This document shows positions 10,744 through 43,208 of a stretch of DNA of 64,000 nucleotides, piece after piece (positions within the stretch are counted from its first letter, which is position 1; the number at the start of each line of letters is the position of its first letter). This DNA comes from Pseudogymnoascus verrucosus (Eukaryota). The notes beneath the pieces were generated by a model. That model did no database searches. It was not told the DNA's origin and saw only the letters and a list, made by a program, of their open reading frames with translations. Both the position numbers and the translations under genes were made by a program. The DNA is taken from NCBI GenBank assembly GCA_001662655.1, contig KV460242.1; one strand, given 5' to 3'.

Positions 10744-12081
10744 ATGAAAGCTTCAACGCGGCTTTTGCAGACTGCAAGGCACTTTACGAAACACCATGGC
10801 CCGCGGGTCCGTCTCCCAGGCTTCCCAGTCACGGCCGACGACCCCATCACGAGCCTCGCCAGCAAGCCGTTACATAGCTTCAGTCTAGCAGATCTAGTCA
10901 GGTACAGCTTCCATAACTTCTACATGCCCCTCGACGTACCTCAATTCCCCTTTTACCTACGATACTAACATGCAACCAGGCACGGCCGTCCTCCCCTCTC
11001 CACCGAAGCCCTCCTCGCCTCCGCCAACTTTACCCTCTCCCTCCTCCCCATCCGCCTCGCGCACCGCATCCAAGCCCTCCGCAACCTCCCCTACATCGTC
11101 GTCTCCAACCCCAACATCTCGCGCATTTACGCAAACTACCAGCACTCCCTCTCCACGCTCCTCCCTTACACAAACACGCACATCTCCTCCCTTGCCGAGG
11201 AAGTGAAATTCACGGCTGTCCTCGCGGACCTCGTCGATACCCACCGCGACACCATTCCCACCCTCGCGCGCGGATTCCTCGAATGTCGCCGGTATATTAG
11301 TCCGGGCGACGTAACCCGCTTTCTGGACGAGCATCTGAAAACCCGCATCGGCACGCGACTCGTTGCTGAGCAGCACATCGCGCTTCACCATTCGTCGCAG
11401 GCGCATGCAGGACCGCCAGGGCCAGAGAGCTACATCGGCGTGATCGACACAGAGCTGAAACCCGCGTCGATAATTAATGCGTGCGGGCACTTTGTGTCTG
11501 AGATCTGCGAGCTTAAGTACGGCGTGCGTCCGACGTGGATTATCGACGGGGATCCGGAAACGAAGTTCGCGTACGTGCCTGTGCATCTCGAGTACATCGT
11601 CACCGAGCTCCTCAAGAATGCGTTCCGCGCCACCGTCGAGTCAGGTAACTCAGCGCGCCCGATCATAATCACCATCGCTGCCGAGCCGCCGGATGACGAT
11701 GACGCCACGGACACCATGCTCGATAACCGGCTTGCGGCGCTGCCGCTCGCGGCGGGTCCGCCGGGCGTGACGATCAGGATCCGTGATGAGGGCGGGGGAA
11801 TTAGCCCCGCTGTTATGCCGAGCGTGTGGTCCTATAGCTTTACGACGTTTGAGGATGGCGATGATATTCCCGCTGGGGCGACGGGGACGGAGAGTGGGAT
11901 GGATGCGCTGAATGCGATTGCGGCGGGGGGAGGGGTGAATAGCAGCATTGCTGGGCTGGGGTATGGATTGCCGCTTAGTAGGACTTATGCGGAGTATTTT
12001 GGGGGTGGGATTGCGGTGCAGAGCTTGTATGGGTGGGGATGTGATGTTTATCTGAGGCTTAAGGGTATTGGAAAGTTATAG
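10744..12081 (+). CDS. Mitochondrial pyruvate/branched-chain alpha-ketoacid dehydrogenase kinase (exons 10744-10901, 10980-12081)
   Basis: [69 protein letters not shown] (BCDHK + HATPase_c). Confidence 0.93.
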
Positions 12082-12272
12082 GTTCGGTGCATGGCGGAGT
12101 TAGCATGAGTTATCCGCATGGCGTTTTGGACATTAGGTTACTATAGCGGTTGAATAGGGGGGAGGGAGGCTAGGAACCAAATTGTATATAACAGTGTCTA
12201 TAGATGACATACGTGCTTATAGCAGCTATAACACAACTAAGGGGTTTTAATAACTAGCAGACTTAAATAGTA

Positions 12273-13085
12273 ACGTAATTCACAAACGAGTCGCCTACTA
12301 AAACACTAAAATGTGTTAACTTAACAAAAGTTAACATACTATAACTAATAGAAGCCTAGTGTTGCCTAAGTACTACTTAGAGTACTACTTAGAGATCTTT
12401 AAGTAGAGTACTGTTTTTTAGGCTTAAGTAGAGTAGTACTTAAGTTATTTAGCTTTAGCTATATAGAGTAAGAGTAGAATATACTATTATAGTAGGTGTA
12501 CTAGTCCTATTAAATCTCTAACATAGGGGCACTTAATTTAGATTCTAAATAGGGAGCTCTAATTACTATAGTACCTTTATTCTAAGGGAATTAAACCCTC
12601 TAGGCTCCTAGCCTATAGGCCTAGGGATAACATAAGAATAATAAGTATAATAGACTATAACTCTATATATTACTTTATATAAGAATATACTCCCTAATTT
12701 ACTATAGGACCTCTAATAACTTAGTTTTATAGCTATATAAACTATTCTAATAACCTAACTAGTCATCTACAAGTAGGACTGTGTTTGTAACACAGGGCGT
12801 GCTGACGACGTCCTACCTTCACCTCATTAGCTTTTAGAATATTTATGTTAGTGGGGGGTTTTAGCATATGTCTAAGTACTCTATTTGGATTGAACGGGAT
12901 TAAACCACTTATAGCGAAGCCTGCCTTGATATTCTTCAGCGTGAACGCTCTTACCCTTGCTGGGCTGTAGAGAGAAATGAAATGCTGCTTGTCGATTGTA
13001 TTCACGCCTCCTTGCTCCTGTCGATCAACCTGTTCGCGATAGGCGTCCTTTAGCGGGGCAAACACTGCACCGTCACAGGGCTGGT
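12273..13085 (-). mobile_element. Truncated RIP-degraded Fot1/pogo transposon (3' part of DDE transposase plus terminal repeat)
   Basis: QPCDGAVFAPLKDAY...FISLYSPARVRAFTLKNIKAGFAISGLIPFNPNRVL; TA|ACGTAATTCACAAACGAG terminus at 12273; TpA-rich. Confidence 0.75.
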
Positions 13086-13255
13086 CACTTAGTAGTAAAG
13101 GTGGCTACTAGTTACGGTAATAACAATGTATATCTTTTGTAGCCTTGCCCCGGCTCCCTTCCCTAATGCAGCGGACAAGCAGGTAGTGGCGGCTACCTAT
13201 CCGATGGCCCTAAACCAAGCTAGAGGCTGATTCCCAAATTGTAGCTGATGCCTAC

Positions 13256-41900: not shown

Positions 41901-42893
41901 TGCAGCGTGAGTGATAAAGAAGCATTGGTGACTGCTGTCGAGGAAATTATGCAAAGAAGCACCGTCAAAGGTGTTGTTCATGGTACAGTGGGAGAAGATG
42001 TAAGTTTTGGTTTTTCAAATAATAGCAGTCTTGATAGCCGCTGACAATGTTAGAATGCTGCATTCGAAAGTGCGACACAAGATCAGCTGCAACATATGTT
42101 CAACCACAAGGTACAAGGCGCTATCAATCTACACGAAGTGACTCTTCAATGCCCACTAGACTTCTTTGTTATGACCTCCTCGATTGTTGCAACGGTTGGC
42201 GCTGCGAGATCAGGCCTCTATGTCGCCGCAAACGCATTCCAAGATTCGTTCGCTAGGCACAGAAGATCCAAAGGTCTTCCTGGTCAAACTATCTCTTTTG
42301 GACCGGTGTTGGAGGTTGGGTCTGTGGCGGATCCGGCCTTGGTACAGACAGCGCTTCAGCGCATTGGACTTTCAAGTACAACAGAGTACGAATTTCTAAG
42401 GCTATTCGAGCTAGCTCTAGCTAGCCCAAAGATTCCTCAAGATTGTGACCCTTTCGCTGGTGCGCATCTAATAACGGGAATGGAGCCTCAGCAGCTGCAT
42501 AAACTTCATCAAAAACGTATTGGCAGCCAGGTTGTATGGCACTTTGATGCGAGATTCGCCAGAGTACTCACCGCCGTGGAAGATGTGACACGAAACAAAG
42601 TACTTAAAACACAGGAAATGAGTGTTCTAGATAGCCTGAAGGACTCAGGTCCGGAAGAGAGAGAAGAAATCGTCATACGATCTATGTGCACGAAACTAGA
42701 AAGCCTGTGTTATCTTGCTTCCGGGTCTATCGACCCGCGGAAGGCAGCTATGACCTACGGCATAGATAGCATGATTGCAGCGGAATTCAGGAGTTGGCTG
42801 TTCAAGATATTCGAAGTAAATATCAGTTTTTTGGAATTACTGAGCCCGAGAACGAAGATTCTGGGCCTAGCGAAAATGGTTCTAGAGCATTAG
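35932..42893 (+). CDS. Iterative type I reducing PKS: KS-AT-DH(degenerate)-cMT-KR-ACP, no ER (exons 35932-36034, 36100-36571, 36635-41999, 42054-42893)
   Basis: EPIAIVGMGCRLPG, DTACSSS, ECHGTGT, KPNLGHAE; GHSSGE, AYHS; IEVGGGTGG, ASQVLH; GGLGGLG, TSS..YVAAN; YGIDSM. Confidence 0.95.
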
Positions 42894-42998
42894 GATAAGA
42901 ACTTGATCGATGAGAATATATCTCCAGGCTATTTTTCACCTGGCTTATAAAGTTCGATAAATGACCGAAGTGCCACCTAAATTATACGAAATGGCTGA

Positions 42999-43208
42999 AA
43001 TGCGATTGCGGCGGGGGGAGGTGTGAATAGCAGTATTGCGGGACTGGGGTATGGGTTACCGCTTAGTAGGACTTATGCGGAGTATTTTGGGGGTGGGATT
43101 GCGGTGCAGAGCTTGTATGGGTGGGGATGTGATGTTTATCTGAGGCTTAATGGCATTGGGAAGCTATAGGGTGCATGGTGGAGTTAGCATGACGCACGGC
43201 GTTTTAGG
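42999..43208 (+). pseudogene. Duplicated 3' fragment (56 codons, stop and 3'UTR) of the kinase gene at 11911-12130
   Basis: [56 protein letters not shown]; 161/171 nt identical by manual alignment; no upstream kinase sequence. Confidence 0.97.

Follow-up and report, generated by a model that had tools for sequence, protein, structure and literature searches.

How did the 3′ end of one protein kinase gene come to stand twice on the same fungal contig, in the same orientation, with some 31 kb of accessory DNA between the two copies? The question is raised by a 64,000-nucleotide (nt) stretch of the Pseudogymnoascus verrucosus genome (GenBank assembly GCA_001662655.1, contig KV460242.1; referred to below, at its full length, as the window), the best protein matches of which are to Pseudogymnoascus (Leotiomycetes). 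One copy (tail A) is the end of a complete mitochondrial kinase gene of the PDK/BCKDK family; the other (tail B) is an orphan fragment just downstream of a polyketide synthase (PKS) gene. Gene clusters of fungi are known to be gained and lost from strain to strain, and the joints that would reveal how are usually erased. With moderate confidence, we read tail B as a relic of recombination between lineages, at the border of an accessory block combining genes for carbohydrate-active enzymes (CAZymes) with a PKS cluster.

Extent and divergence of the two kinase tails

The elements concerned are located in the window as follows.

10744–12081 (start approximate), plus strand: mitochondrial PDK/BCKDK-family protein kinase gene; last exon 10969–12081; gene model via tblastn
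11911–12135, plus strand: tail A; last 56 codons and stop (11911–12081) with ~54 nt of 3′ untranslated region (UTR); working kinase end, encoding the lid region
11971–12062, plus strand: A copy of a 92-nt identical core; putative gene conversion or crossover tract
42994–43002, plus strand: left junction of tail B; GCTGAAATG here, matching GCTGAATG of the kinase at 11906–11914
42999–43213, plus strand: tail B, orphan copy; 56 codons and stop (42999–43169) with ~44 nt of UTR-like sequence
43059–43150, plus strand: B copy of the 92-nt core; identical to the A copy

The duplicated gene has both the N-terminal BCDHK_Adom3 domain and the GHKL-type HATPase_c domain of the PDK/BCKDK family (Pfam matches of kinase exon 10969–12078 to PF10436, E 2.6e-50, and PF02518, E 8.7e-10), and this exon is 92 to 98% identical to proteins of several named Pseudogymnoascus strains. 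A repeat search returned the tails as one two-copy direct family (11911–12082 and 42999–43170; 172 nt, 94% identity) with a start-to-start spacing of 31,088 nt. Tail B begins 105 nt after the PKS stop codon (42891–42893), is immediately preceded by an in-frame TGA (42996–42998), and is 98% identical over 56 amino acids (aa) to the kinases of relatives (tblastn). Both tails end in a stop codon, beyond which the homology runs on for ~50 nt, to ~12135 and ~43213, with one 4-nt and one 6-nt indel and 78% identity over 50 columns in the 3′ UTR part (blastn). Alignment of the flanks found no similarity to the left or right of 11911–12135 and 42999–43213. No run of A follows the end of homology at ~43213, so the poly(A) tract of a processed (retro-)copy is lacking. 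The repeat search and the alignments bear out the initial annotation of the window, which had the kinase 3′ end (57 codons including the stop, plus UTR) recurring directly ~105 bp after the PKS stop.

Read codon by codon, the tails differ at 10 codons, nine of them synonymously, exactly as listed in that annotation, and one by a replacement, AAG>AAT (K>N). Among random changes under neutrality, at least 9 of 10 would be synonymous with P = 2e-5 to 1.7e-4, and Nei-Gojobori estimates between tails A and B are dS = 0.26, dN = 0.0079, and omega = 0.03. These figures bear on the possibility that the repeat arose in place, i.e., that a staggered break was filled in upon insertion of the block, leaving a target-site duplication of ~210 nt, copy B of which decayed while conversion erased part of the differences. 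Direct repeats exactly at the borders of a block that is seemingly absent elsewhere would be in keeping with such an event, and the identical core shows that the copies have exchanged sequence. However, with tail A constrained and tail B free to change, the expected synonymous fraction is 0.39 to 0.47, against an observed 0.9, and 9 or more synonymous changes in 10 have P = 0.0013 to 0.0068; the tails do not show the neutral decay of a target-site duplication. Moreover, the divergence of the tail edges (10 differences in 81 nt) far exceeds the 0.7 to 2.4% found in the adjacent PKS gene among strains that share the structure. With the codon changes at a P of 0.001 to 0.007, we give duplication in place very little credence.

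Because the synonymous excess rejects decay in place, most of the divergence would have arisen while both tails were working kinase ends; a dead duplicate would not diverge in the way that tail B has, as had been argued from the outset. The site of the lone replacement has K in 16, R in 1, and N in 0 of 17 complete tails from relatives, so the K>N change fits decay after loss of function.

The differences are confined to the edges of the tails, six in the first 20 codons and four in the last 7. Nine synonymous differences fall in ~20.3 sites at the edges and none in ~20.7 sites in the core (Fisher P = 4.8e-4), and the dS of the edges is 0.67. There appears to be no special nucleotide constraint on the core, since at 13 outgroup kinase loci 10 to 21 of the 26 to 28 same-amino-acid core codons differ from tail A, similar to the edges. 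The original picture of the divergence therefore holds for the synonymous excess but needs revision for its spread, which is uneven, with the middle 92 nt identical. Typical between-clade dS in Pseudogymnoascus is ~0.5 in the excerpted text of Leushkin et al. (2015; PMC4438637), a value of the same order as that of the edges. On this sequence evidence, the edges resemble a pair of alleles diverged at clade level, and the core resembles a tract of conversion or crossover.

Six open reading frame (ORF) calls from relatives (P0127, P0128, P0130, P0132, P0141, and P0144) depart from the kinase right after YGWGC (window equivalent, ~12040), reading VS.. or VG... The departure fits an intron with a GTRAGT-like start, or some other interruption, in those lineages; it is absent from both window tails.

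The joint behind the polyketide synthase gene and the locus in relatives

For comparison with other strains, four runs (X2, X3, X7, and X19) of the 21 found were set against window positions 38000–57800. The PKS gene is present in all four at 97.6 to 99.3% identity (0.7 to 2.4% differing letters). One X3 contig spans the joint between the PKS gene and tail B, ending at 43090, and an X19 contig extends from the PKS gene to 43028, 30 letters into the strict repeat, a borderline bridge; contigs that start at 43096 and 43104 (X2 and X3) continue into the B flank. Since the contigs break within the tail, it would appear to be repeated in the X2, X3, and X19 genomes too.

These contigs also bear on assembly artefacts. 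The initial annotation had raised a mis-scaffold of two haplotypes at an N gap; more broadly, two haplotypes or loci might have been joined there, or the assembler might have collapsed or copied the tail. A run of 185 N (13362–13546) does lie between the two tails. However, both tails are within gap-free sequence, and on either side of the gap the same 24-nt tandem repeat and the same ORF continue. The PKS-to-tail-B and tail-B-to-flank joints, moreover, are found again in contigs from other organisms and studies (X3, X19, and X2), and a 23.7-kb contig of strain VKM F-4519 carries the kinase and the B-flank gene together. Tail B is thus unlikely to be a mis-scaffold, because other strains' contigs carry the joint between the PKS gene and tail B, and an artefact of any kind seems scarcely credible.

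The X7 contig matches the PKS gene and its 3′ flank up to 43002 and continues with 441 letters unlike the window, the point of departure coinciding with the left edge of tail B; X7 also gives no cover at 43288–43948, weak evidence if taken alone. At the left junction, the PKS flank and the kinase share AATG exactly, or 8 to 9 nt with one indel; the exact match to the kinase begins at 42999. Illegitimate joints often lie within a few bases of microhomology. Because X7 leaves the window at this point and the PKS flank and the kinase share microhomology, we place the joint at 42999–43002, where the sequence is consistent with an illegitimate, microhomology-type event. An unusual conservation of the PKS gene among strains was also considered and was dropped for X2, X3, and X19, in which the 2EXR side is equally close (0.8 to 1.4%) and the stretch from the HET gene to the acyl-CoA dehydrogenase (ACAD) gene is the part that stands out by its divergence. 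In X7, the PKS gene differs by 2.4%, versus 7 to 8% at the ACAD and 2EXR genes.

As to relatives, the initial annotation had pointed to an intact second kinase paralogue as a finding that would speak against it. No such paralogue is supported: each of 13 named strains occurs once, and none twice, among the named members listed in three clusters at least 92% identical to the window kinase, in a search covering proteins of 203 to 648 aa, in which fragments would not appear. Gene order can be followed by locus tags in 03VT05 (2EXR, 06203; acid phosphatase, 06204; kinase, 06210) and 05NY08 (2EXR, 03468; acid phosphatase, 03469; kinase, 03476). Five genes lie between the kinase and the acid phosphatase in the former and six in the latter, compared with ~14 in the window (nine in the block and five after tail B). 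By these tag counts, the accessory block seems to be lacking at this interval in more distant congeners. The tags of the kinase (03717) and of the B-flank gene's homologue (03711) are six apart in VKM F-4519; because both fit on one 23.7-kb contig, the interval between them is shorter than the 31.7 kb of the window.

A metagenome scan with the kinase gave 14 loci, the closest 78% identical. Two of them (L001 and L002) keep the order HDAC-AFG1-BMS1-kinase; downstream of the kinase in these two, nothing matches the window except a 47%-identical 2EXR gene in L001, which is uninformative on the native flank. The L001 gene, on a distant Leotiomycete contig, is a 2EXR-family gene at 12848–13612, 1.7 kb after the kinase, and corresponds to window positions 56892–57788, a hint that the whole 12- to 57-kb stretch may be lineage specific. 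A protein search with PKS residues 1 to 450 returned only bacterial multimodule PKSs among the 120 matches listed. In exact protein look-ups, 4 of 10 window ORFs and 0 of 10 exon ORFs were matched.

Copy number and the X7 contig both bear on a further explanation, in which tail B descends from an old paralogue, i.e., the kinase gene was duplicated within the genome, both copies long remained functional, and the second was eventually reduced to its last 57 codons. Synonymous-only divergence is also expected of such a relic, and the nearby transposons and DNA resembling the product of repeat-induced point mutation (RIP) show that the region rearranges. Yet none of the 13 named strains occurs twice among the named members listed in the close kinase clusters, X7 has the PKS flank without tail B, breaking away exactly at the tail's left edge, and an edge dS of 0.67 needs a very old duplicate, lost everywhere else. 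An old paralogue is, in our judgment, rather improbable.

Proposed recombination between lineages and competing mechanisms

In the inter-lineage reading that we favour, tail B would be the 3′ remnant of another copy (allele or orthologue) of the PDK/BCKDK-type kinase, one that was formerly functional and came from a Pseudogymnoascus lineage diverged at about between-clade level. Rare inter-lineage recombination would have put this fragment on the same chromosome as the resident kinase, with the PKS-side joint (42999–43002) forming illegitimately through microhomology of a few bases. A whole kinase gene (5′ part plus tail A) would have been retained, and because of this the recombinant could survive. 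The central 92 nt may have been homogenised during the event, as a heteroduplex or crossover tract, or by ectopic gene conversion at a later time. The accessory block between the tails comprises the RIP-like transposon relic, a repeat-protein gene, a DUF3716 ORF, a pogo-like transposon, the xylan-degrading pair of GH11 and GH62 enzymes, and a cluster of flavin monooxygenase (FMO), BBE-domain oxidase, O-methyltransferase, and highly reducing PKS genes.

Both the foreign origin of one tail and the type of event are what we infer from comparing the sequences. Three events would give the same map: integration of a circle; unequal illegitimate crossover with conversion; or placement of a 1.2-kb patch (the tail plus a 199-aa gene) beside the PKS gene. 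The mosaic of edges and core fits the circle slightly better than the other two. Of the initial proposal that diverged DNA entered this locus, the part concerning an origin in a diverged lineage gains support from the synonymous excess and the edge dS of 0.67, but the Campbell mechanism attached to it is not separable from unequal crossover or a patch. Nor does anything support the further suggestion that the xylanase pair and the PKS cluster arrived as one unit.

Integration of the Campbell type is a special case of the inter-lineage reading. A circular 31-kb molecule (tail, UTR, block, and PKS flank), closed at the GCTGA(A)ATG microhomology, would have integrated through one homologous crossover at the kinase tail of a block-free chromosome. 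The homology segment is indeed directly duplicated around the insert (11911–12135 and 42999–43213), the 92-nt identical core between diverged edges is the expected remnant of a crossover with a heteroduplex tract, and the microhomology where the PKS flank meets codon −57 could be the point of circle closure. On the other hand, no circle, recombinase, or attachment-like site was seen, and a single unequal crossover plus later conversion yields an identical map. Homologous exchange within ~200 nt, with edges ~12% different (10 in 81 nt), is expected to be inefficient, which also counts against this mechanism, and the B flank as native neighbour of the kinase is unsupported, the homologues of its 199-aa gene being found in the window's clade only. 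We regard such an integration as unlikely, although it should be kept in mind.

A stronger form of the same idea has the block moving between diverged lineages without a recombinase, as a circle excised at the microhomology and re-integrated by crossover in the last 57 codons of the kinase, an essential gene, which is a doubtful possibility. The accompanying claim, that the kinase would have been kept intact because the circle carried its own gene end and that the 92-nt core would be the crossover footprint, we put forward just as tentatively. If true, the direct repeats would let the block be lost again, with a K>N kinase left behind. The precise loop-out with the kinase intact that had been envisaged at first is disfavoured: crossover in the identical core would leave the gene carrying the K>N change at a conserved K. 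The kinase would not be strictly intact, because it would have N where the relatives have K (16 of 17) or R (1 of 17).

Several points weigh against recombination between lineages as the source of tail B. Chief among them, the argument from selection depends wholly on 10 differing codons among 56. Conversion of one tail by the other is itself deduced and, if frequent, would complicate the reading of dS; the foreign tail, moreover, could be A or B. The PKS gene of X7 may sit at another locus than the one between the kinase and HET sides. The absence of the block from this interval in 03VT05 and 05NY08 is suggested by locus-tag arithmetic, and a joint between kinase and A flank elsewhere is hinted at only by a contig of 24MN13 whose end falls no more than ~15 nt from the left edge of the repeat, which weakly suggests that this assembly broke at the repeat. 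The 199-aa protein of the B flank has homologues in two clusters only, all in the window's own clade and none outside it; because of this restriction, the prediction that the B-flank gene would directly follow the kinase in block-free relatives failed.

Other known routes provide partial parallels. Starships, which carry cargo in blocks of tens of kilobases and move clusters from one fungal genome to another, have two hallmarks: a captain, i.e., a DUF3435 tyrosine recombinase near one end, and short target repeats with terminal inverted repeats. The block differs in that its borders are a 210-nt gene fragment and that the scanned ORFs yielded no captain (DUF3435) or other recombinase. No recombinase or captain-like domain was detected by Pfam (29 plus 48 queries) in ORFs of at least 80 aa at ~12.0 to 46.6 kb, a scan of the main ORFs and most others, with some overlapping frames outside it and a captain beyond the window possible. 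The only mobile-element match in these scans was a weak DDE_1 relic. The initial remark that no recombinase or Starship captain is to be seen is upheld for these ORFs. The repeat search showed no inverted repeats at 12.1 or 43.0 kb, the sole bracketing repeat being the kinase tail. As in Campbell-type or one-sided integration, known from bacterial islands and fungal transformation, a homology segment is directly duplicated around an insert and the target gene is intact; unlike in those systems, there is no evidence of a circular intermediate, and one border is an illegitimate microhomology joint.

The finding belongs with two known phenomena, cluster polymorphism and inter-lineage exchange in Pseudogymnoascus. 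For the latter, the excerpted text of Leushkin et al. describes a mostly clonal phylogeny of the genus in which 77 short regions (mean length, 878 nt) are of foreign ancestry, the exchanged segments being ~100 to 10,000 nt long, diverged at between-clade level, and attributed to rare recombination of distant lineages (PMC4438637). The present case is alike in genus and in its between-clade level of divergence. As excerpted, the regions of that report are allelic replacements found by conflicting tree topology, whereas here a partial gene duplicate stands beside the resident copy and borders a 31-kb block. For the former, Lind et al. (2017) name recombination, insertion/deletion, and transposable elements as drivers of cluster gain/loss, idiomorph, and location polymorphisms (PMC5711037, in excerpt). 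Similar to these polymorphisms, a PKS cluster here lies beside transposon-rich DNA and is present in some relatives and seemingly absent from the same interval in others; a duplicated, synonymously diverged gene end as border mark is not described in the excerpted part of that report. What the window would preserve is a joint in the form of a gene fragment that records a past in a working gene of another lineage and then exchange with the resident copy. If this is true, the locus offers a dated case, resolved to the base, in which recombination between lineages placed or came to border an accessory block, and this in a genus reported to be nearly clonal; the same footprint can be searched for in other fungal genomes; otherwise, it is an ordinary rearrangement scar.

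Contents of the block and its surroundings

The remaining features of the window are listed in order of position.

2–3049, minus strand: HDAC gene (Pfam scan)
3333–4802, minus strand: AFG1 ATPase gene (Pfam scan)
5696–8989, plus strand: BMS1 gene (Pfam scan)
12140–13250, unstranded: AT-rich, RIP-like relic of a DDE_1 (pogo/Fot1-type) transposon; begins where the homology of tail A ends; GC 0.37
13256–13840, minus strand: Q/G/P-rich repeat-protein ORF; holds the assembly gap (N, 13362–13546)
14705–15208, plus strand: ORF with DUF3716 match (Pfam E 1.8e-5)
15901–17761, unstranded: Tn1, pogo-like DNA transposon; ~63-nt terminal inverted repeats, TA target duplication, no intact ORF
18444–19096, minus strand: GH11 xylanase with C-terminal CBM1 (Pfam)
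21484–22635, plus strand: GH62 arabinofuranosidase with CBM1 (Pfam E 5.5e-129)
23942–25884, minus strand: flavin monooxygenase, FMO-like, with NAD_binding_8 N terminus (Pfam)
27779–29047, plus strand: FAD-linked oxidase with BBE domain (Pfam)
30998–32290, plus strand: membrane protein with fungal rhodopsin domain (Pfam E 4.7e-30)
33447–34942, plus strand: O-methyltransferase (Pfam)
35698–42893, plus strand: highly reducing PKS, KS-AT-DH-CMeT-KR (Pfam)
43494–44147, plus strand: gene for a predicted secreted orphan protein of 199 aa, the first gene after tail B; homologues in two clusters only
44190–46049, unstranded: Tn2, pogo-like, of the same family as Tn1; inverted relative to Tn1, 87 to 88% identical, TA target duplication
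46563–48362, minus strand: HET-domain gene (Pfam); opens a block, to ~55 kb, that is unusually diverged among strains
Order downstream of the HET gene: thioesterase-ankyrin (minus), Ras-like GTPase, Tn3, ACAD (minus), acid phosphatase, 2EXR (minus), TGT

In the relic at 12140–13250, the DDE_1 match (12766–13104, minus strand; E 7.5e-4) scores 19.6 bits, under the Pfam cut-off of 22. Against Tn2, the relic gives 35% in tblastx over 69 aa (E 2.6e-9), and its TpA/ApT and (CpA+TpG)/(ApC+GpT) ratios are 1.88 and 0.64. The adjacent 24-nt tandem repeat (13242–13672) encodes QGQYGAPN-like units on the minus strand. Tn1 and Tn2 bracket most of the block, with transitions making up 166 of their 211 differences; recombination between them could invert 26.7 kb. 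The family has very high depth in X3 and X7 and is thus multicopy there. A tandem duplication of 2 × 70 nt (91% identity, 33329–33468) stands just before the O-methyltransferase gene.

Tn3 (51174–53014), a 1.84-kb DNA transposon with 40-nt inverted ends, is absent from all four runs. Its empty site is clean in X7 and X19 (joint 51173>53015, two shared letters, the skipped part starting with TA), and the site holds 6 other letters in X2 and 31 in X3. Tn3 appears to be a recent insertion specific to this strain.

The HET/thioesterase-ankyrin/Ras/ACAD block (46050–55100) is far more diverged among strains than its neighbours: X2 and X3 differ by 3.7 to 5% there, versus 0.7 to 1.1% in the PKS gene, B flank, and 2EXR gene, and X19 by 5.7 to 10%, versus 1.3 to 1.4% in the neighbours. 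The cause may be alleles maintained for long at a het-type locus, or a further exchanged segment.

Searches of the window detected no tRNA near either tail junction. A 101-nt tRNA match at 55057–55157 (minus strand; Rfam, 47 bits), missed by ARAGORN, probably contains an intron. Between BMS1 and the kinase gene lies a small ORF (~9766–10112) resembling peptidase inhibitor I9, which is joined to the kinase in the gene models of several relatives (PF05922 in P0002, P0134, and P0137). Another small tandem duplication, of 2 × 41 nt with 90% identity, occupies 56435–56516.

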